Source of the DNA: a virus
Lineage: Duplodnaviria; Heunggongvirae; Uroviricota; Caudoviricetes
DNA length: 64,000 bases
Virus record (IMG/VR): IMGVR_UViG_2571042445_000002
Direction: 5' to 3' (one strand)
The notes under the pieces are model-generated. The model worked only from the letters and a program-made list of their open reading frames with translations, did no database searches and was not told the DNA's origin. Position 1 is the first letter of the stretch; every line of letters starts with the position of its first letter. Shown piece by piece: positions 2,410 to 59,520 of the stretch. Position numbers and translations under genes: made by a program.

Positions 2410-3252
2410 ATGCAGAATAACTGGCTAAAAGAGCGTCTGACGCAATTTAAACAGGATTCTAAATTGTGGGCCGCCTTTGTTGATACGATTCAGGACGTGT
2501 GGAATGAATCGGTTGAACCTATTCTCACGCGAATAAGCAACCGTAAATCGTTTTTCACAATGGCAAGGGAGGATATGGACACTCGCATTGCTGAATATGG
2601 TCGTTTCTTTGTTATCACAGAAACGGACAAAACACGCAGGCCAATGCTATTAGCTCAACGACTGGATGAGGTGCACTTCAAAGGAACAGTAAGGCCGATA
2701 GAGCAAACGTTCTGGCGTGAATTTGGCACAATCCCCGTCTCATGGGAACCTTTGTATGCGCCTGTCGATACAGAAAAACATCCCTATGGTTCATTCTTCG
2801 CGACTGCAAATGAAATACCGACTGCTCAGGCACAATATGGTGAGTTTTTCCTGACATCCAGAGGGCTGGTTGTCGTCAACCAAAATAAGCTGTATCGAGC
2901 TTATGATAGCGATGACAGAGACGTTGCTGTACAGAAGCTACTTGCTGATTTTGATACGGTTATAGCGCCGCTATTGCCATTGCATATCGTGTTTGATGGT
3001 GTTTCTTTCCAGTTGAGCGCAACATTGCCGGAAATGGCGGAGATCCTGAATTGCTTATCTGCGGAAGTGTCCTTTATTGAGGGGGTGTACACGACGCAAG
3101 AGATGGTCGATGAACTATCTATTAGCGATACGATCATTCAATTAGACGGCATCCAGTTCGCAGGAAGGCCAGACCGGACGACGGAAAGAGTGCTTCATCT
3201 CGATGAACTCCCGCTCGACGCCTGGGCGCTGGATTATAATTTTGCACCTTAG
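2410..3252 (+). CDS. putative tail/baseplate protein
   Basis: 280 aa, follows baseplate J-like gene, followed by strong hairpin. Confidence 0.3.
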   Translation: MQNNWLKERLTQFKQDSKLWAAFVDTIQDVWNESVEPILTRISNRKSFFTMAREDMDTRIAEYGRFFVITETDKTRRPMLLAQRLDEVHFKGTVRPIEQTFWREFGTIPVSWEPLYAPVDTEKHPYGSFFATANEIPTAQAQYGEFFLTSRGLVVVNQNKLYRAYDSDDRDVAVQKLLADFDTVIAPLLPLHIVFDGVSFQLSATLPEMAEILNCLSAEVSFIEGVYTTQEMVDELSISDTIIQLDGIQFAGRPDRTTERVLHLDELPLDAWALDYNFAP

Positions 3253-3259
3253 CAAACCA

Positions 3260-3290
3260 GGCCCCACCAACCTGGGTGGGGCCATTTCTC
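3260..3290 (+). terminator. hairpin terminator candidate after baseplate genes
   Basis: 9-bp GC stem ggccccacc/ggtggggcc with 6-nt loop, then T-rich tract. Confidence 0.4.
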
Positions 3291-3308
3291 AAAACAAAAG
3301 ACCACTGG

Positions 3309-3324
3309 AAATCACAAACTGAAC
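3309..3324 (+). promoter_or_regulatory. candidate late-promoter element (AAATCACAAACTGAAC)
   Basis: one of four copies of a conserved 16-bp motif, 45 bp upstream of the tail-fibre operon start. Confidence 0.4.
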
Positions 3325-3368
3325 ATACTGCCCTTCGATTTATTGCTTGTTAAAGGGGCTATGTTCGT

Positions 3369-3815
3369 ATGGCTGAAACTTTAAAATCCCAAAGCGATTC
3401 AAGTATTTACAAGGCGCAACTCCTTTCTTACTACTACTCTCGCCGTGCAGAGTCTGCAATCGGCAGGGGTGAGCGTTTTGTTATGACAAAGGCTTATTGG
3501 TGCAAGTCCGATCTTGTGACGGTAAATAGTGCTGGTGGCTGGACTATTTCTGATATTCCGCTCGACTTCAAGTTAAGTGATGCACAGCATTTTGCTGAAT
3601 CCAATCTCATTCTTTCCAGCCTCGATGGTGTCATTACGATTAATGCCGCTTTTCCACAAGAAACGATGCCGGACGATACACCTTACGATTTCAATACGCT
3701 GGTTCTCGTAGATGCAGAGGATCAGGCTTTTGGGGTTGTTTGTACTCAACAGGACACCTTATTCAAAGGTAAGCGATACAGCTTGCTCATGACCATTGAA
3801 CAGGTCGAGGGATAA
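3369..3815 (+). CDS. tail-fibre operon protein (position equivalent to P1 R)
   Basis: 148 aa, immediately upstream of tail fibre gene. Confidence 0.3.
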   Translation: MAETLKSQSDSSIYKAQLLSYYYSRRAESAIGRGERFVMTKAYWCKSDLVTVNSAGGWTISDIPLDFKLSDAQHFAESNLILSSLDGVITINAAFPQETMPDDTPYDFNTLVLVDAEDQAFGVVCTQQDTLFKGKRYSLLMTIEQVEG

Positions 3816-3817
3816 TT

Positions 3818-6800
3818 ATGTGCGCAGATAAAGTAAAGAATATTGTCACCTTATCTTCGGACATTTCCGCTCCACTAATTGCAGACATGCAATACTTTGA
3901 GCTGTATAGCACCGAAGCTCTAAACAGGAAGATGAAAAATATCGTTCTGCCCGGAGTGTACTGTGGGTTTGAACCGGTGCCAGGGGATGGTCTGTTTGTG
4001 CGTATTACATCCGAGAAAACAGAGGGAAGAGGGGCGGCTTCAATTGACGTGGGTAAATGTCAGATATCCGTGCAGCAAGTCAGTGATGTTCTTGTTCCTG
4101 TAGAAGCTGGTGTAACGACAATCATCGTTCTTGAAGCTAATTACGAACATGGAGTGAAAACCAGCCAGGTAGATAGCTCATCGGATATTAGCGCAGCGAG
4201 AATTATTGCTCTCGTTGATGAGGAAATAGCATCTAACCAGATTGAGCTATGCCGCGTGATCGTGCCTGACAATGCTCAAGCCGTTACCGCAGATATGATT
4301 AGCACTGAATATCGTGCTAATCGTGCTGTTGGTGTTGAGTTTTCCAGTGCTTTGGATAGTGACGAAGAATATAAAGCCGCAACACCTCTTGCTATCAGCA
4401 CGTTAAACAAACTAAAAGCTCCGGTTGATAGCCCGGAGTTTATTGGTATACCTAAATCTCCAACTCCGGAACAAGGTACAAACAGTACACAAATCGCAAA
4501 CACTGCCTTTGTTCAGGCCGCAATAACCGCCCTTATTGATGGTTCTCCTTCGGCGTTGGATACGCTGAAAAAAATTGCAGATGCAATTAACAATGATCCT
4601 CAGTTTAGCCAGACGATTAATGCTGCTTTAGCTCTTAAAGCACCGTTATTAAGCCCGGCATTTACAGGGGTGCCAACAGCGCCTACAGCGTCACAAGGTA
4701 CGAACAACACTCAGATTGCAACAACCGCTTATGTTCGTGCCGCTATTTCTGCATTGGTCGGCTCATCACCAGAAGCTCTTGATACTCTTAATGAGCTTGC
4801 TGCGGCGCTGGGCAATGACCCGAACTTTGCGGCTACAATGACAAATGCCCTGGCAGGTAAGCAGCCTCTCGACGCAACCTTAACCGCGCTCGCTGACCTG
4901 GCGACGGGGGCAAATAAATTACCGTACTTTACCGGAACAGACACTGTAGCCCAGACTGATTTAACGTCAGTCGGTCGCGATATTCTTGCTAAAACAAGCA
5001 CACTGGCTGTTATCCAATACCTTGGTTTAAGAGAACTCGGAACCAGCGGAGAAAAGCTCCCCCTGTTGAGCACAGCTAATACCTGGAGTGCACGCCAGAC
5101 TTTCAGCGCGGGGATCACTGGTACGCTGACCGGGAACGCCGATACTGCGACGAAATTAAAAACAGCCAGAAAGATTAACGGTGTGGCATTTGATGGGTCG
5201 GCAGATATTACTCTGACCCCTGAAGATCTTGGCTTAACGGATATTGCTTCTCAAGCTGGTAACGCAGTTCAGCGTTCTGGCGACACAATGGGGGGGCAGC
5301 TAAAAATTGGCACAATAAATGCCCTTCGAATATTTAACCAGGACTTTGGCCTTATCTTCAGGAGATCCGAGGAATATCTTCATCTTATCCCGACAAATGA
5401 AGGGGAGGGTGAAAATGGTGACATCGGGCCATTAAGACCATTTTCTATAAACTTAAGAACTGGGTTGGTGTCCATCGGTAACGGCGTAAAAGTTGGCGGT
5501 GGTATTACTGGTAATTTGACGGGAAACGCAGATACTGCCACAAAGCTCAAGATAGCTCGAACGATCGGCGGAGTGTCATTTGATGGCAGCGCCAATATCG
5601 ACCTGCCTGGCGTGAATAAAACAGGTAATCAGAGCACTACCGGCAATGCTGCAACCGCAACGAAACTTCAGACGGCACGCACAATCGGCGGAGTGTCATT
5701 TGATGGCAGCGCCAATATCGACCTGCCTGGCGTGAATAAAACAGGTAATCAGAGCACTACCGGCAATGCTGCAACCGCAACGAAACTTCAGACGGCACGC
5801 ACAATCGGCGGAGTGTCATTTGATGGCAGCGCCAATATCGACCTGCCTGGCGTGAATAAAACGGGTAATCAGAGCACTACCGGCAATGCTGCAACCGCAA
5901 CGAAACTTCAGACGGCAAGAACAATCGGCGGGGTGGCATTTGATGGCACTGCCAATATCAACCTGCCGGGTGTGAACATTGCTGGTAACCAGAACACAAC
6001 AGGTAATGCTGCAACCGCTACAAAACTGCAAACAGCCCGCACAATCAACGGTGTTAAGTTTGATGGTTCTGCGAACATTTCGATACCAACAATTACGTCC
6101 AGAGGGCGTGTTACTGCGCTCACCAGTACAACGCAAGGTGCTACTACTGGATTGCAGATGTATGAGGCGTACAACAACGGCTATCCTTCTGCTTACGGGA
6201 ATGTGCTTCATCTTAAGGGCGCAACTGCCGCTGGTGAAGGCGAGTTGTTCATAGGTTGGAGCGGCACAAGTGGTGCTCATGCGCCTGTACATGTACGTTC
6301 GCGACGAGATACTGATACAGCCAGTTGGTCTGAGTGGGCGCAGGTCTACACATCGAAGGATTCCATCCCTGGTGTAAATACAACAGGCAACCAGAACACA
6401 ACCGGAAACGCGGCGTCTGCAACGAAATTACAAACGGCAAGAACTATTGGTGGTGTTTCATTTAATGGCACCGCAAACATCGACCTGCCGGGCGTGAATA
6501 AAACAGGTAATCAGAGCACTACCGGCAATGCTGCAACTGCAACGAAACTACAAACAGCGCGCACAATAGGCGGGGTTTCGTTTGATGGTACAGCAAACAT
6601 CAATCTTCCGGGCGTTAATATTGCCGGAAATCAAAATACAAGTGGTAATGCAGCTACAGCGACAAAGTTAAAAACTGCCAGAAAAATAAGTGGAGTGGCT
6701 TTTGATGGTTCTGCAGACATCACATTAACGGCAAGTCATGTTGGTGCGTTACCAACAACAGGTGGTACTGTTACCGGTGAAATTATATCCAGCAGCCAAA

Positions 6801-18350: not shown

Positions 18351-18539
18351 GAATGTATGATTTATATCGTCACTAAAAAACAGCATCTGATAAAAATTCT
18401 GTTGATCTTTCTAATGTTCAGGCTTATATTCATGCCGTCGTAGCAAATTCTGCGACCGGGTTTAGCAGCCTGAATGTTAGTGCGGACAACCGCAGATATC
18501 CGATATTGCGGTATTTTTGTGTCCGTAAAACCGCGTTAC

Positions 18540-18677
18540 GCCCAAATTATGGTGGGGCGTGATGGGGAGGCTTCGGCCTGCTGGTTTCACTAACGCCAGT
18601 CTGCTAACCCCGTCACGTCCTGCCACCTGTTTAGCAGCGGGTAGCAGGTTGTTAAACCTGTTAGTGAGGCCGTAACT
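18540..18677 (+). ncRNA. candidate c4-like antisense RNA / structured leader
   Basis: hairpins (e.g. gaggc-UUCG-gcctg) in the leader just upstream of icd-like gene. Confidence 0.25.
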
Positions 18678-29962: not shown

Positions 29963-31171
29963 ATGAGTCAGCAAGTAGAATCATCAAGCCTGGAGATCAT
30001 CTCAACCGCAATTGAAACGCTGCGGACACAAATCGCGCTTATACAGAAACGAAATCCGGGCGATGACCTGTCAAAGCGACTGCATGAGAGCGTCATTGCC
30101 ACTACAGATAACCTGGTGGCGGAAATCAACCAGCTCCTTGATGATGGGGCAGTTGATTACAATAAGCTGGTGGATCAGTTTGAGGAATATCAGCAAGCCG
30201 TTAATGATGGCTTGATCCGTTTTTCTCAAGTCACTGGTGTATCAGCGACAGTTGAAAGCCTGGGGGATGCAGTTAATCAATTTGCCGCGAATATGCGTAA
30301 TGAGATCGGCAATCTGGAGGCGCGTCTTGAGCAGGCAAATACACTGCGCAAATCTGCTGAAGTCGATTTGAGTCGTTACAAAAAAGACTATCCGCCAAGC
30401 CTGACAAAACGACTGGATGTTGCGGAGAAAGATAACCGCACGCTGAAAAGAGAGCGTCGGGAACTAAAAGAGCGTTTAACCAAGCTAAATCAGCAATGCG
30501 TTGAGTATCAAGGCGAACTCGTCACACTGCGTAAAAAGTTAGCAGCGGCGCAGAGCATTATTGAAACATTGAAACGAGAGTGCTCAGAGCTTGGTCATGA
30601 TCTGAATCGCGCCTGTGGCATGGGGCAAAGGCCAGAGACATTCCCGCTAATGTATGACGGAAGAGAAGCTATTGCCTATATCCATGAGTTTCCGCATGGT
30701 CTGGTCGCGGAGACTGGGCAACGTGGCGAAGCGTTGCTGACGGCAAATTACCATCAGCAAATCAGAACCAGCCGCCTGCTGACGATGGATGTGATCCCGT
30801 CAGTATGGGGAACGCCGCTTTACTACCGAATTCCTGGCTTCGAAACTGACTGGAATACCGACATAGACGAATGTCTGGCAGATAAAATTATGGCGTACCT
30901 TGAAACGGATTTTCCACGCTTGCATCGCCGGATTATGGACTCTAAGGATGCACCGATCGACGAATTGAAAATGCGTCCAGAGACGTTGGAGGCAATCAAG
31001 CAGACTGAGTTTGATACAGTGTTCAGTGTGGCCTGCATTCCAAGCAGCTTTCATGAAAGCATTCCGTTCATGCAGGGCGATCGCCGTCAGGAAATAATTG
31101 ATGCTTGCCGGGTATGGGCGAACGAGTGGGATAAGAAGAACGGTGGAGTTGAAAATCTTTACGGGAAATAA
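29963..31171 (+). CDS. coiled-coil hypothetical protein
   Basis: 402 aa; N-terminal half strongly coiled-coil; good RBS AAGGGAAC. Confidence 0.45.
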   Translation: MSQQVESSSLEIISTAIETLRTQIALIQKRNPGDDLSKRLHESVIATTDNLVAEINQLLDDGAVDYNKLVDQFEEYQQAVNDGLIRFSQVTGVSATVESLGDAVNQFAANMRNEIGNLEARLEQANTLRKSAEVDLSRYKKDYPPSLTKRLDVAEKDNRTLKRERRELKERLTKLNQQCVEYQGELVTLRKKLAAAQSIIETLKRECSELGHDLNRACGMGQRPETFPLMYDGREAIAYIHEFPHGLVAETGQRGEALLTANYHQQIRTSRLLTMDVIPSVWGTPLYYRIPGFETDWNTDIDECLADKIMAYLETDFPRLHRRIMDSKDAPIDELKMRPETLEAIKQTEFDTVFSVACIPSSFHESIPFMQGDRRQEIIDACRVWANEWDKKNGGVENLYGK

Positions 31172-31172
31172 T

Positions 31173-31206
31173 GTATTAGAAAATTAAAATTGTTTTTCTA
31201 ACATAT
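31173..31206. promoter_or_regulatory. operator-like inverted pair
   Basis: TGTATTAGAAAATTAA and inverted TTTTTCTAACATA at the entry to the ncRNA/tRNA island. Confidence 0.5.
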
Positions 31207-31322
31207 TGATTATGTAGTTAACTTAACATAGAATTTTTCGTGCTGGTGGGGAGCTTCCCATGTCGCTTGCGGGTTTGATAGTCACTTCATTGTCTTTCCC
31301 CACCAGCATCAAACAATTTTAA

Positions 31323-31336
31323 GTGTTAGAAAGTAA
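31323..31336. promoter_or_regulatory. operator-like motif GTGTTAGAAAGTAA
   Basis: motif family member. Confidence 0.4.
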
Positions 31337-32515
31337 ATTTTAAGGTAAGGGAAAGCTCCGGCACCGTGCAAATACATGCCCGGCAGGTTTAGTGCGTAAA
31401 GTGGTTTCAGCGAGAGCATTTTACGGAGTAAACGACAGTGACTTGAGCCACGGAAGGTCTTTTTATGGTGTTCATTGATGATGATCTGGCAGTGAGTATG
31501 TTAAGTGGGCCAGGCTGCATCGGGTCATCATCAGTGCACATCCTCAACGTTAAGGAGGCGCAGAGTTGGGTTTTCCTCTTATTTTGCTGACTCTGAGTCT
31601 CCTTAACGTTGCGGTAATGCACCTATGCGGATGTGGCCTTGCATTGTGTCTTGAAAGAATGGGGTAAGGCCGGGGATATCCTCAGGGGGAGGCACCCCCG
31701 CTGCAACGAACAGCCACAGACGGCAGTCGAGTGATGGAAACGTGCAAAGACTTTAAACCTCGTTACGGCTGGCGTGGCAAACGCGACAACCGAGACAGAG
31801 CGGTGACGGGCGGAGAGAGAGCCGCTTCAAGATAAAAGCCGACTATGGATTCCTTTCTGCGGGCCTTTGAAAGTGAATCTTGCTCAGGCAGTCGGCTTTT
31901 ATGTTGATACGTAGCGATAACCGCGACAGGCGCGGCGGTAAGTATGGCGGGGTTATTCCTTCCCCGTTGAGGACACCGAGTTGCCAGGTTGACCATACGC
32001 CTAAGTGGCAATACCGCGAGTGGGATATTTGCCCACCTTCGGGTGGGTGTTTTTTCAGTGTTTTCGTCATGGTTAGCGACTTTGCGGCGGTTTAGAACCC
32101 GACCATTAAAGTAAATGCAAACGATGATCTGATGATGGTAGCGGCCTAAGAAGCCTGACGCCACGGGGTATGAGTCGTCCCCCGTCAAAAAATCGACCGC
32201 AGAGTGTCCCCGTCTGTGTATTAGGGAACGGGGAGGCATAACAGGCAAGGGCGCTGGTGTGATTAACCAGATGAATGAGAAGGGTCAGGTCTTTCTGGTC
32301 AGCGCCCTTACCTGTTACGTCCCTCCCGCGTAACAGCCATTGGTTAATGGCTTTCTGGGATAATGTCTTGTAACGGGTATATCCCGTCATGCTGAAGGCG
32401 CTAATCACGCTGGAAGCCAGGGTTATGCATCCCCTGTTACCGAATTGCAGCCAGGGCGCGGTGCGCCGAAAAGCATACGGAGGTGGAAGCCCTCGCCGGA
32501 GACGTACCCGGCAAG

Positions 32516-32591
32516 TGATGGTGTAGCTCAGTGGTAGAGCAGTTGGCTGTTAACCAACTGGTCGGTGGTTCGAATCCACTCACCATCGCCA
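32516..32591 (+). tRNA. tRNA-Asn (anticodon GTT)
   Basis: 76 nt; acceptor gatggtg/caccatc, anticodon loop CTGTTAA, T-loop TTCGAAT, 3' CCA encoded. Confidence 0.85.
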
Positions 32592-32593
32592 AT

Positions 32594-32669
32594 GCCGGTT
32601 TAGCTCAGTTGGTAGAGCGCCTGCCTTGTAAGCAGGATGTCAGCGGTTCGAGTCCGTTAACCGGCACCA
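32594..32669 (+). tRNA. tRNA-Thr (anticodon TGT)
   Basis: 76 nt, 2 nt after tRNA-Asn; anticodon loop CTTGTAA; T-loop TTCGAGT; CCA encoded. Confidence 0.85.
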
Positions 32670-32671
32670 AC

Positions 32672-32760
32672 ACAACAGGTAAGGGTATTTTGCGACGTCG
32701 GAGATCGCCGAGCTTGGCAGAGGGTTCGAATCCCTACGAAGTACCCTTACCGTTGTGATG
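32672..32760 (+). ncRNA. tRNA-like hairpin element or pseudo-tRNA
   Basis: 15-bp stem acaacaggtaagggta/tacccttaccgttgt enclosing a T-arm-like GGTTCGAATCC; no full cloverleaf. Confidence 0.3.
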
Positions 32761-32857
32761 AATGCACAGGCTGATGTGCCGCAACTACAGTAGTGCGCGC
32801 TTTGCGGGGCTTGCTACAACCCTGTGTCGGAGTTCAGCACCGACCATCACAATCACT

Positions 32858-32944
32858 GGAGAGTAGGGAGCATGGTGCTCAAGCGGTCTTGAAAACCGTC
32901 CCATTGCGCAAGCGATGATGGTTCGATTCCATTACTCTCCGCCA
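32858..32944 (+). tRNA. tRNA-Ser-like (anticodon TGA), long variable arm, atypical D-arm
   Basis: acceptor ggagagt/actctcc, anticodon loop CTTGAAA, long variable arm, T-loop TTCGATT, CCA encoded. Confidence 0.5.
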
Positions 32945-33200
32945 GCGCAACGTTAAGAGTATTTGGCTAATTAAGCGAATGCCGGAAGCAGAACCGGATC
33001 ACCAAATGCTCTTACCATTGCGGTGAATGCGGCTAAGCGCACGCGGAACAGTTAAAACAGTAAAGGTGGTCTTTTTACTGGCGTAACGAGAATCCATAAG
33101 TGATCCGGCGTTAATTGTTAACTGGTTAACGTCACCGGGAGGCACCCGGCACCGCAACCTAACAGCAATGGCGTTTTGTCTTAAAAGGTGGCTGCAAGTG

Positions 33201-33329
33201 ATGGATTTTTGGGCGTTTGCCGATAAAAACCCGGAGTGGACATTATTGTTTCTGCTGGTGGTTGCATACGGGGTAGAGCAAGCGGCAAAAGCCTTACGCG
33301 GTTCTGGCAAAAAGCGTAAGCGTAATTAA
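33201..33329 (+). CDS. small membrane peptide (42 aa)
   Basis: ATG ORF MDFWAFADKNPEWTLLFLLVVAYGVEQAAKALRGSGKKRKRN, one TM helix plus basic tail; below the ORF-track size cutoff. Confidence 0.25.
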   Translation: MDFWAFADKNPEWTLLFLLVVAYGVEQAAKALRGSGKKRKRN

Positions 33330-33338
33330 CAGTAATCT

Positions 33339-33414
33339 GGCCCTTTAGCTCAGTGGTTAGAGCGGGCGACTCATAATCGCACGGTCACCGGTTCAAGTCC
33401 GGTAGGGGCCACCA
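33339..33414 (+). tRNA. tRNA-Ile2 (anticodon CAT, lysidine type)
   Basis: 76 nt, nearly identical over D-arm and anticodon arm to E. coli tRNA-Ile2 as I recall it; CCA encoded. Confidence 0.8.
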
Positions 33415-33866
33415 CATTTGGTTGTAACACGGCGTATGGCACATGCGTCGTTAGCGGTCTGGTGTAGCTGTTAGGTACCTTTTACTAACACTGCATGGGC
33501 ACACCAGGTAGCCGGAATGTGCAAGCCCCGTTCATAGCGTCGGACTGCGGATTCACCATCCTGGCGATTCGGTGTGACAGCCGGAAGAGCACGGCGTACA
33601 ACAGGAAAAGGCGTTTAATTAGCGTGAGCGCCGTTTCCGTTGTGGTAATTGCGGCTATGCGCTCGTGACGAAGCCATTTTCATTCACTACGTTCTGATAA
33701 GTGTCGTCGCCGGGCGTGGCTAACCTGGCAGGTGGAGGCACCACCGCCACAACTCCTTTCAATTCATCATATAGCCGCTCAGGCTGTAACCCTTAATTAA
33801 TACGAAGTTACGACGTCACTACCGGTTCAGCCGGGGGATAGTCGCGCGTGTAAAAAAGGAGACGTT

Positions 33867-34442
33867 ATGTTAACGGCGAACGATAACGCGTATTCAGAAG
33901 ATGATCTCGTTTTGAGTGACTTTATAGGGCGACGAGAATGCTGGACGCAAAAGCGCGAGGAGCTTTATGCAGCGTTAGTTCGTAAAGGCGTCAACATCGA
34001 AACCGCACAGAACGGTGATATGACAGTGGTAAGTGTTGGACTGCACGGCGTAAGTGTGTCAGCAATCAATCATGAGCCGTACATTGCGTTATCCGAGTCG
34101 ATGGTAAGGTTAGTTAAGTTCCTGAAGTACACAGAAGCGAATAACGTGATCATCGCCAAAAAGAACATCCCGTTCTCATCGGCCTTTTACTGGATGATGA
34201 AGGGGCTTGATGCCCGGCGAACATCATGGCCTAAAGGGAGCTATATATCGATGCTCCGTGGCAGTGTTGGTAGCAAAGAAAAGCTCGTCGAATTCCTGCC
34301 GGAAGAGGCATTCGATATTGTTGAAGGTTGTGATGTGATGGTTATGCCTCGCCTGGTAATGATGAATGGGGATTTACAGGCGCAGACAGACTGGTTTGCA
34401 ACTGGAGTTGATATTATCGCTACTGACTGGGAGGTTTTTTGA
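33867..34442 (+). CDS. DUF2829 (Tad2-like) domain protein with N-terminal extension
   Basis: 191 aa; C-terminal region has the W-x3-G-x3-RR-x2-W-x-G signature (FYWMMKGLDARRTSWPKG) and the DIIATDWEVF end. Confidence 0.4.
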   Translation: MLTANDNAYSEDDLVLSDFIGRRECWTQKREELYAALVRKGVNIETAQNGDMTVVSVGLHGVSVSAINHEPYIALSESMVRLVKFLKYTEANNVIIAKKNIPFSSAFYWMMKGLDARRTSWPKGSYISMLRGSVGSKEKLVEFLPEEAFDIVEGCDVMVMPRLVMMNGDLQAQTDWFATGVDIIATDWEVF

Positions 34443-58720: not shown

Positions 58721-59369
58721 TTAAGTTGAATTGTGAGATTCGCCGTTGTACATTCACAACCGATTGGTACACCGGTCAACTTTTTGAGACAAACCGTTTG
58801 GTTTTTCGTATGATTGCCGCCGCCATACCAATGGCGGTGCAATATAGGTGGCTGAAAAGCCCCCGTTGACTCACGGTGTTCCAACCTTTATTGCGCCGCC
58901 ACCAGACCGTGGAACAGTCGATGGCGGCTCCGAAAGCAAGGAGTCACTACACTATGAACAGCTACTGTCTTTTCCCATCACTCGTTGTCCGCCACTCACG
59001 CGATAATCTGCATTCTTTACTCGCGCTGGGGGTGTCAAAATGACCGTTCGCTACCTCAACTTTCAAATCCAGAACATCACTGGCGGTTGCTATGACTGGT
59101 TTGTCACTCTCGGAAAAGAAGTGATCACCGGAAAGCTGGATGAAGTGAAAGCTAAAGCAATGGCCTACGCCTGCAAGCAAGCCCAAAAGAAGAAAAGAAA
59201 AGCATAAGAAAACACACAGTTGCGCCCTGGCATTATCGTGGGGTATATTTCTACGGCACCTTAGAAAAACGGGTGCCGGGATTGGAACCCCGGATAATGT
59301 CAAAGGCGACACAGACGCCGAACGCGTCTTTTTTTGTGTCATGCCATCGCACAGCCATACTTAGCGTTT

Positions 59370-59520
59370 AGCTCAGAGATCAATGGTAGTGCTGGCTGGG
59401 CTGCCGAAAGGCAGGCCGGTTCCCTTTGACGCCGGTAGTTCCAACCCAGTCAGTGCTACCGCCATTGAGATTGGAACCTCACGCGGTAGCTCCTTAACTT
59501 AGTCAAAGGAGGCTGCCAAT
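59370..59520 (+). ncRNA. candidate c4-like antisense RNA / structured leader (copy 2)
   Basis: hairpins (ctgcc-GAAA-ggcag) upstream of the second icd-like gene. Confidence 0.25.

Follow-up and report, generated by a model that had tools for sequence, protein, structure and literature searches.

The stretch of DNA analysed here, called the window, is 64,000 nucleotides of a virus of the class Caudoviricetes (IMG/VR record IMGVR_UViG_2571042445_000002). Near its middle, positions 32516-33414 hold an island of transfer RNA (tRNA) genes for Asn, Thr, Ser and Ile2. The island also contains long hairpins, units that resemble a known small RNA (sRNA), and one short open reading frame (ORF). An earlier note, made from the sequence alone, had described the four tRNA genes, a tRNA-like hairpin and the short ORF, and tRNA calls, folding and the ORF list find every one of them in place (Table 1). 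The island is real and is largely already known, being textbook P1 biology. The interpretation given in the note is partly supported. The Ser gene, which it suspected of decay, appears to be a member of a published class of unusual serine tRNAs, and the hairpin is a conserved structured RNA rather than a tRNA.

Table 1. Features of the island and of the surrounding leader, in window coordinates
Feature	Position	Strand	Evidence
17-bp operator-like motif flanking the promoter	31187-31203; 31324-31340	-; +	inverted copies
sigma-70-like promoter TTGATT-17-TAGAAT	31206-31234	+	promoter scan
Hairpin F	31529-31627 (arms 31529-31566, 31590-31627)	+	inverted repeat I1
STnc100-like unit ST1	31603-31707	+	direct repeats D7, D8, D10; paralogue alignment
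Tag-like frame ANDDLMMVAA*	32117-32149 (context 32056-32230)	+	RF04321 24.1 bits, E = 0.015
Hairpin A	32230-32326	+	inverted repeat I2; 27-nt arms; homologues in viral contigs
tRNA-Asn(GUU)	32517-32591	+	ARAGORN; RF00005 75.3 bits
tRNA-Thr(UGU)	32594-32669	+	ARAGORN; RF00005 74.9 bits
Hairpin B	32671-32757	+	fold z = -5.4; covariation; not called as tRNA
STnc100-like unit ST-X	32753-32851	+	read from sequence; repeat D3
tRNA-Ser(UGA), (8/4)-type	32858-32944	+	ARAGORN (tga); tRNA-Sec model 44.6 bits; comparative analysis
Hairpin C	32946-33022	+	fold; lambda match
STnc100-like unit ST2	33019-33160	+	RF02076 40.8 bits, E = 4.4e-7
42-aa TciC-like ORF, one hydrophobic segment	33201-33329	+	ORF list
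tRNA-Ile2(CAU), lysidine type	33339-33414	+	ARAGORN (Met/Ile2 cat); RF00005 66.7 bits
Hairpin D (short)	33598-33645	+	repeats D3, D5, D7, D13; alignments
STnc100-like unit ST3	33634-33760	+	repeats D3, D5, D7, D13; alignments
Copies of motif TGTTAGAAAAnnAATTT	18319, 29929, 31187, 31324, 40675, 58058, 58071, 58702		window

By sequence comparison, the window is assigned to a D6-like member of the P1 phage-plasmid family because of its identities, its D6 gene order and the C4 modules described below. The 1.4 kb around the island is 99.7% identical to a 94-kb E. coli plasmid (NZ_CP085065) and 92.7% identical to phage D6, and parts of it are ~90-92% identical to P1, P7, RCS47 and SJ46. The genes follow the order of D6: pmgS (29963-31171), 2.7 kb without long ORFs, an orf6-like gene, lpa, pacA and pacB.

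The Ser gene is built from an acceptor stem GGAGAGUA/UACUCUCC, a D-stem GAGC(A)/(U)GCUC with a loop of 3-5 nt (UGG core), a variable arm CAUUGC-GCAA-GCGAUG (6 bp, closed by GCAA) and a T-stem AUGG/CCAU. Every helix is intact, and the gene keeps the discriminator G73, the G2:C71 pair and an encoded CCA. ARAGORN imposes a 7/5 cloverleaf with a 3-bp D-stem on this gene and passes over the GAGC(A)/(U)GCUC helix. Among the Rfam models of the tRNA clan, the best match is tRNA-Sec (RF01852), at 44.6 bits and under the gathering score of 47. An identity as tRNA-Sec is ruled out by this score, by the anticodon (UGA, not UCA) and by an acceptor/T branch of 12 rather than 13 bp.

The compact D-stem helix is taken as real because homologues show stem variants that covary. 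The stem is GGGC/GCCC in pJN2-26, UGCUC/GAGCA in Klebsiella phage Roth49, GCUA/UAGC in Klebsiella phage Roth19, GCGGA/UCCGC in Streptomyces phage Romero, GUCA/UGAC in an Acinetobacter phage and GUCC/GGAC in a Brevundimonas phage. A compact D-arm (stem 4-6 bp, loop 3-6 nt) is found in 36 of 144 unique parseable viral Ser tRNAs. Within this compact class, members with 3 nt between pair 7 and the D-stem have an 8:65 pair that is A:U in 21 cases, G:C in 3 and U:A in 2. Where the pair is G:C, joining 49 to 65 in the canonical way would leave an A.C mismatch. Canonical Ser tRNAs differ, with U8 (85/91) and G49:C65. The window gene taken alone permits both A8:U65 and G49.U65.

The earlier note had allowed that the Ser gene, with its atypical D-arm, might be decayed, and a decaying or non-functional pseudogene is the obvious alternative. 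The atypical D-arm is confirmed by ARAGORN and by comparison; the decay is not. Several annotations would suit a pseudogene: the general tRNA model is not the best clan match and tRNA-Sec falls slightly below threshold, the D6 record states that tRNAscan-SE could not assign an amino acid, the rV5 record states that the gene was detected with ARAGORN only, and the D6 allele has a C.U mismatch within the D-stem. Against this, the gene is 100% conserved in P7, differs by one base in D6, and is widespread in rV5-like phages at ~83% identity with compensatory changes in the acceptor stem and D-stem. The D-stem covaries across dozens of phage Ser tRNAs, the helices are whole with G73 present and CCA encoded, and the gene fits a described functional class. 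A pseudogene is thus scarcely tenable. The D6 and rV5 records already list the gene as tRNA-Ser.

The class in question is the (8/4) tRNASer, or allo-tRNA, class. As described by Mukai et al. 2017 (PMC5389517), it has been found in bacteriophages, and its members came to light as false hits of the tRNA-Sec model. The window gene agrees with that description in its variable arm, G73 and UGA anticodon, in its Sec-like D-arm and, by way of its relatives, in an 8+4 branch. It would be a new member of the class, matched by description rather than position by position. Such a tRNA would join an acceptor stem of 8 bp to a T-stem of 4 bp and a D-arm of the compact, Sec-like kind. It keeps the identity features for seryl-tRNA synthetase (SerRS), namely the long variable arm, G73 and G2:C71, and would presumably be charged by SerRS. 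That the island has four working tRNAs and that the Ser gene belongs to the (8/4) class is considered very probable. Standard pipelines under-call this gene.

The virulent myovirus rV5 (locus 1501-1700) has the (8/4) Ser tRNA followed by a unit of the lambda late-leader type, closed by GUUGACC/GGUCAAC. The same pairing of tRNA-Ser with a lambda-type unit indicates that both move together between very different phages.

The Asn, Thr and CAT genes all pass the RF00005 gathering threshold of 29 bits. ARAGORN, which the earlier note had named as a check, calls these three and the Ser gene, all on the + strand. The note had likened the island to that of P1, and the P1 record has the same set of Asn, Thr and Ile2. 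The CAT gene is a tRNA-Ile2 of the lysidine type (ileX-like), which would read AUA after lysidine modification. It is 89.5% identical to chromosomal genes annotated as tRNA-Ile, which are found in 5426/5426 E. coli genomes, and the P1 record annotates its own CAT copy as tRNA-Ile2.

The tRNA-Asn allele of the window differs from those of P1, P7 and D6 at ~9 positions, and the changes in its anticodon stem and T-stem compensate each other. Its closest allele (94.7%) is in the Klebsiella phage-plasmid pJN2-26, which indicates cassette replacement. In the RefSeq record of phage D6 (NC_050154), the Asn, Thr and Ser tRNAs (locus 2718-3423) are annotated on the strand opposite to that called by ARAGORN, and the record does not include the CAT (Ile2-type) tRNA that ARAGORN calls at locus 4409-4484.

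The earlier note had also proposed a codon-usage comparison with the host. It was made on the long ORFs of the window, with 50 kb of E. coli chromosome handled by the same method as the baseline. Codons of all four tRNAs are enriched: ACA 2.0x, AUA 2.6x, UCA 1.6x, AAC 1.3x and AAU 1.4x (all p < 4e-4). The four tRNAs would add decoding capacity for AAY, ACA, AUA and UCA, which are commoner in phage than in host genes.

Hairpin B is the element that the earlier note had described as a tRNA-like hairpin with a T-arm-like sequence. Its basal stem consists of 6 bp, a bulged A and 15 bp, 21 bp in total, and is longer than the 15 bp first described. The minimum free energy is -41.4 kcal/mol (z = -5.4), and 0/200 shuffles fold equally well. 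The apical part, which contains GGTTCGAATCC, is made up of GCGAC-GUCGGAG-AUCGC, resembling an anticodon arm, then a spacer of ~15 nt (~16 nt in relatives), then AGGG-UUCGAAU-CCCU, resembling a T-arm.

Conservation of hairpin B follows the pattern of a structured RNA. In an alignment of 23 distinct sequences, 93.4% of the stem cells are paired, compared with 35-56% when the partners are slid. Ten of the 21 pairs are changed on both sides, and 0/500 shuffles attain the observed covariation. In a sample anchored on the stem arms, which is unbiased for the interior, the motifs GCGA(Y)-GUCGGAG-AUCGC and AGGG-UUCGAAU-CCCU are invariant; the spacer and stem vary. RNAalifold finds the two loops complementary to one another (UCGGA/UUCGA), which makes a tRNA-type T-loop no more plausible than a kissing interaction or an alternative helix. 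P7 keeps the basal stem around a different interior that has no T-arm.

The hairpin is also widely distributed. At 95% identity or more, 488 plasmids carry it, as do 464 of 5426 complete E. coli genomes. An unrelated Enterobacter Uetakevirus has a copy that is 85% identical, and a motif scan of viral contigs finds many more divergent copies outside P1-like elements. The same type of scan on genome contigs finds one Escherichia contig only. In P1 (locus 2769-3146), the plp ORF overlaps, in antisense, the 3' end of tRNA-Thr and the whole of hairpin B, which lies under the 3' end of plp. The window has no plp-like ORF, and therefore the hairpin, not plp, explains the conservation there.

Hairpin B is a genuine conserved structured RNA and is not a tRNA. 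ARAGORN calls no tRNA at this position, and no tRNA or tmRNA model matches it even at E up to 10. A 21-bp stem and the lack of a D-arm, a 7-bp acceptor stem and a free 3' end rule out a tRNA. The shape that had been described therefore stands, and the tRNA identity falls, as ARAGORN and Rfam reject it and the interior in P7 has no T-arm. As a counter-test, the note had named rejection of both the Ser-like gene and the hairpin by tRNA predictors; the outcome is split, with the Ser gene accepted and the hairpin rejected.

Hairpin B could instead be a remnant tRNA gene, a pseudogene that has lost its D-arm. It contains the canonical T-loop sequence GGUUCGAAUCC, its second hairpin has a 7-nt loop with U at position 2 and a purine at position 6, and it lies inside the tRNA cluster immediately 3' of tRNA-Thr. 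These resemblances stand beside the failure of the tRNA and tmRNA models, the 21-bp stem without a free acceptor end, and the mutually complementary loops, which suggest a kissing or alternative helix. Both loops are invariant above a covarying stem as far as the Enterobacter Uetakevirus. Invariant loops and a covarying stem across distant phages indicate a selected structure, not decay, and a tRNA remnant is very unlikely.

The leader contains five or more long hairpins that are paralogues of one another (F, A, B, C and D), with arms of the type ACAAC-N-GGTAAGGG.../...CCCTTACC-GTTGTG. This result turns a single curiosity into a conserved, covarying hairpin family, here called the scaffold family. 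One member is directly 3' of tRNA-Thr and another directly 3' of tRNA-Ser. Hairpin A shows a compensatory change from U-A to C-G between the window and D6 on one side and P1 and P7 on the other. Over 41 nt, the interior of hairpin C matches the late leader of lambda/HK630 at 97.6% identity.

More than 120 viral contigs carry scaffold arms (GGTAAGRGCATTG...AGTGCTCTT), and the 132 matches enclose at least 65 interiors of 38-64 nt. A regular-expression and fold scan of the window finds no additional scaffold hairpins outside the leader, and a 12-mer at 5995 is a chance match inside a coding region. The family is widespread and absent from Rfam, and no description of it was found in the literature searched. 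Weak Rfam matches (mascRNA-menRNA, YrlA, ALIL and several microRNA precursors) are far under threshold and are taken as chance or generic hairpin/T-arm similarity.

Four of the five hairpins, all but A, are followed by an STnc100-like unit that starts with GTGAATGC and ends with GGGAGGCACCC...GCAAC. STnc100 is a family of prophage sRNAs related to PasD and is found downstream of stx2 in the late regions of Stx phages. The three clear paralogues covary in the closing helix and the 3' hairpin. The fourth unit, ST-X, has a closing helix GUGAUG/CAUCAC and a 3' hairpin GUCGG...CCGAC, is 99% identical to P1, and is not detected by the Rfam model. The STnc100 model (RF02076) matches ST2 at model positions 31-147 only, with 40.8 bits against a gathering score of 47, and gives no match for ST1, ST-X or ST3. 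By the curated threshold, the four units are relatives of the STnc100 core rather than members. In another phage contig, a bona fide STnc100 of 109.7 bits comes right after a B-type hairpin.

Two possible interactions of these RNAs were examined. Downstream complements for pairing of GUUGYGRUG with the 3' end of the following unit scored little above the upstream control. Antisense targets were sought across the 64-kb window with 11-mers complementary to the apices of the hairpins and STnc100-like units, and only chance-level matches were found.

The mosaic breakpoints between the window and P1, P7, D6, BUCT554 and pJN2-26 are located at hairpin arms. Long hairpins with stems of at least 20 bp, standing between tRNA, STnc100-like and tag-like cassettes, would be processing sites of the RNase III type or insulating sites, and would also be homologous junctions for cassette exchange between phages. 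The processing role is put forward tentatively. RNase P might act at the tRNA-like apex.

The breakpoints also bring in a reading at the level of DNA, in which the hairpins are recombination sites that bound mobile cassettes, like the attC sites of integrons, and not RNA elements. Arm sequence (..CAAC-N-G...C-N-GTTG..) and a bulged base are conserved around hypervariable interiors, 65 in 132 matches, and the arms coincide with the mosaic junctions. Homologous recombination at any conserved sequence would yield identical breakpoints, however, and the elements are all on the transcribed strand of leaders, beside sRNA units. G.U pairs are tolerated in the stem (U.G in 20/23 sequences at one position), which indicates RNA pairing. 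These phages are not known to have an integron-type integrase. Recombination sites of the attC type are unlikely.

A candidate promoter for the leader precedes hairpin F and is flanked by inverted copies of a 17-bp motif, TGTTAGAAAAnnAATTT (Table 1). The motif has 8 copies in the window against 0.42 expected, and 0/100 shuffles reach 8. Some copies adjoin both C4 RNA regions. The operator consensus of P1 C1 has 0 matches in the window with up to 3 mismatches. The copies of TGTTAGAAAAnnAATTT are probably operators of a C1-type repressor of the window phage.

The two C4 antisense RNAs of the window are at 18424-18630 and 59256-59466 (70 and 77 bits). One C4 gene is accompanied by its a1/b1 target and the other by an isrK-like RNA. 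The two genes look like two immI-type modules within one element.

In the P1 and P7 records, the Asn-Thr-...-Ile2 genes are downstream of the C1-controlled ban promoter (Pban). By analogy with this promoter, the island is probably in a repressor-controlled early operon. The region would be the tRNA and small-RNA part of a long untranslated leader of this operon, a counterpart of the P1 ban operon. The leader would start at the promoter at ~31206-31234 under the phage repressor and form one long precursor, which RNase III or RNase P may cut into separate RNAs. About 130 nt directly upstream of tRNA-Asn (32389-32516) are nearly unchanged among the window element, D6, P7 and P1 and contain no credible ORF. 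This segment could form a further structured RNA, or serve in processing or as a promoter.

Taken as a whole, this account of working tRNAs, an (8/4) Ser fold, hairpin sites and a repressor-controlled operon is judged probable. Several observations weigh against it. AGA and AGG are enriched too, though the island has no tRNA-Arg, and codon supply is therefore an incomplete explanation. The 8:65 pair is invariant (A:U) among the closest relatives of the window Ser gene, so the 8/4 reading depends on more distant Ser tRNAs. Arm sequences are more conserved among the hairpin paralogues than a simple site of double-stranded RNA would require. At 32030-32055, after the proposed promoter and before the tRNAs, stands a terminator-like hairpin with a U-run, and co-transcription therefore requires read-through, as in P1.

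The short ORF of the island encodes the membrane peptide of 42 aa that the earlier note had placed between the tRNAs. The ORF and its hydrophobic segment are present. A Pfam search of the peptide gives no match; it is 39% identical over 33 aa to P1 TciC (E = 3e-8) and is, by this similarity, a TciC homologue. Directly downstream of the island, a 191-aa ORF (33867-34442, + strand) encodes a domain like Tad2 of Thoeris anti-defence (PF11195, 40.4 bits, E = 4.4e-10). Such a neighbourhood hints at an accessory or anti-defence hot spot.

Recent literature puts forward the idea that phage tRNAs evade defences that target tRNAs. The tRNAs of the island, and especially the odd Ser tRNA, could serve mainly in counter-defence, as spare or nuclease-resistant replacements for host tRNAs cut by anticodon nucleases or colicins. 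The Tad2-like domain of the next downstream gene fits this possibility, as does the P1 island, where tciA/B/C, genes with the annotation 'tellurite or colicin resistance', lie among the tRNAs. The Ser cassette is moreover mobile among unrelated phage types (P1-like, rV5-like and Klebsiella phage-plasmid). The codon enrichment suits all four tRNAs, however, and these four isoacceptors together are not known to be the target of any nuclease. Counter-defence as the main function is regarded as doubtful, and decoding capacity is the preferred reading.

The most novel lead lies in the same leader, just outside the island coordinates and ~400 nt upstream of it. A frame reading GCA AAC GAU GAU CUG AUG AUG GUA GCG GCC UAA, preceded by UAAAU, resembles the tag frame of transfer-messenger RNA (tmRNA, SsrA). 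As in the E. coli tag ANDENYALAA, there is a GCA resume codon and ten codons. The frame also shares the AN(D/E)(D/E) start, the Ala-rich end and a stop codon in the loop of a small hairpin; another hairpin downstream covaries. It has no start codon, like the tmRNA frame, and no Shine-Dalgarno sequence, and an in-frame UAG is found eight codons upstream. The element is present in P1, in D6 and in many viral contigs, in 19 distinct nucleotide forms that encode 11 peptides, including ANDEQFLAVA, ANDDVVLMAA, ANEEMYLAAA and ANEERFLMAA. Ten sense codons and a stop are kept without exception in the 19 unique variants, and variation is greatest at third codon positions. The element is present, unannotated, in 660 of 5426 E. 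coli genomes.

Of the parts of a tmRNA, the leader has the tag frame only. A sub-threshold match to the permuted-tmRNA model RF04321 spans 32007-32149 and is caused by the tag-like frame. Among the tmRNA models (RF00023/RF04321/RF01850), the 24.1 bits of RF04321 are the highest score; the others are 20.5 and 17.8 bits. With thresholds at 47 and 84, these scores do not support tmRNA identity. ARAGORN in tmRNA mode finds nothing, and a BLAST comparison with E. coli ssrA, made for the leader and related units, gives words of 11-13 nt only, with no extended similarity. No tRNA-like domain with alanine identity was found near the frame. Known phage tmRNAs are those of mycobacteriophages and Bacillus phage G, and mycobacteriophage DS6A has a tmRNA mimic, made up of the tRNA-like domain only, that inhibits tmRNA (PMC4131195). 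The literature searched on phage tmRNA-like elements holds no report for P1 or lambdoid phages.

Hairpin B has also to be weighed as the tRNA-like half of a phage tmRNA-like system, with 32117-32149 as the coding half, or as a decoy for SmpB or a tRNA-binding factor. The frame is conserved in the same leader as hairpin B, some lambdoid contigs have a T-arm scaffold hairpin 86-99 nt upstream of the resume codon or ~160 nt downstream, and the DS6A mimic is a precedent. Hairpin B, on the other hand, has no G3.U70 pair, free CCA end or D-loop analogue, and the negative results for ARAGORN in tmRNA mode and for similarity to ssrA point the same way. T-arm-bearing scaffold hairpins adjoin the tag frame in some contigs and not in others, where several tag-frame contexts have no T-arm hairpin at all. 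The loci were partly chosen by the hairpin pattern, which biases the co-occurrence; with its inconsistency, this makes the link between the tag frame and hairpin B weak. The role of hairpin B as such a half or decoy is distinctly unlikely, and a selected structured RNA of the scaffold family is preferred.

The wider proposal is that the leaders of P1-like and many lambdoid phages contain a hitherto unannotated element that derives from tmRNA or mimics it, a decoded SsrA-like tag frame of ten codons without a start codon, with T-arm hairpins as its tRNA-like partner or as a decoy for SmpB or a tRNA-binding factor. It is speculative and has a small chance of being right. If it is true, temperate enterobacterial phages would manipulate ribosome rescue or protein tagging, and the frame, if decoded, would be a new phage route into the ribosome-rescue system of the host. 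Compared with tmRNA itself, the leader element has no tRNA-like domain with alanine identity and no pseudoknots, and it stays below the threshold of all tmRNA models.

The closest known counterpart of the region is the ban-operon leader of P1 and P7. Both have the same three tRNAs (trnA for Asn, trnT for Thr and trnI for Ile2) in identical order, and ~32030 to 32766 of the window is homologous to them at 89-99%. As in P1, a TciC-like ORF is immediately upstream of Ile2. The window element differs from P1 in lacking tciA, tciB, the plp/upl segment and ban. The Ser gene is present in the window element, P7 and D6 and is missing from P1. The window element also carries another Asn allele and another repressor-operator motif than P1 and P7.

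STnc100/PasD (RF02076) is the nearest relative of the units that follow the hairpins. The core of ST2 has the GGUGAAU start and the GGGAGGCACCC hairpin of this family. All four leader copies differ from STnc100 in being below threshold or undetected and in having no counterpart of the 3' terminator part of the model. They are, in addition, arrayed in tandem with tRNAs.

The late leader of lambda/HK630, between tR' and S, has the same scaffold hairpin (CACAACAGGTAAGAGCATTG...CAGTGCTCTTTCCGTTGTG) directly after tR'. In the HK630/lambda-type sequence, the hairpin (1124-1198) is followed at 1199-1290 by a unit closed by GUUGUGCUG/CAGCACAAC. The 41-nt match to the interior of hairpin C, at 97.6% identity, is with this unit. 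Lambda has one copy in a Q-dependent late leader without tRNAs, whereas the window has at least five in what would be a repressor-controlled early leader. The hairpin family thus occurs in lambda, P1 and Uetakevirus-type phages, where it separates tRNA/sRNA cassettes and marks mosaic junctions.

The Ser gene is compared with the (8/4) tRNASer class of PMC5389517. The two share the long variable arm and G73, an anticodon for Ser, and a long D-stem closed by a very short loop. The acceptor/T branch has 12 bp and can be divided as 8+4, the gene is phage-borne, and the tRNA-Sec covariance model led to its detection. The published examples come from metagenomic phages of alphaproteobacteria, from proteobacteria and from rumen Clostridia. 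The window gene differs from them in belonging to enterobacterial P1-like and rV5-like phages, and in having a D-loop of 3-5 nt rather than a strict tetraloop. A rare (8/4) architecture would now be placed in tractable, well-studied coliphages, namely P7, D6-like plasmids and rV5, in which charging, decoding and possible resistance to tRNA-targeting defences are directly testable.

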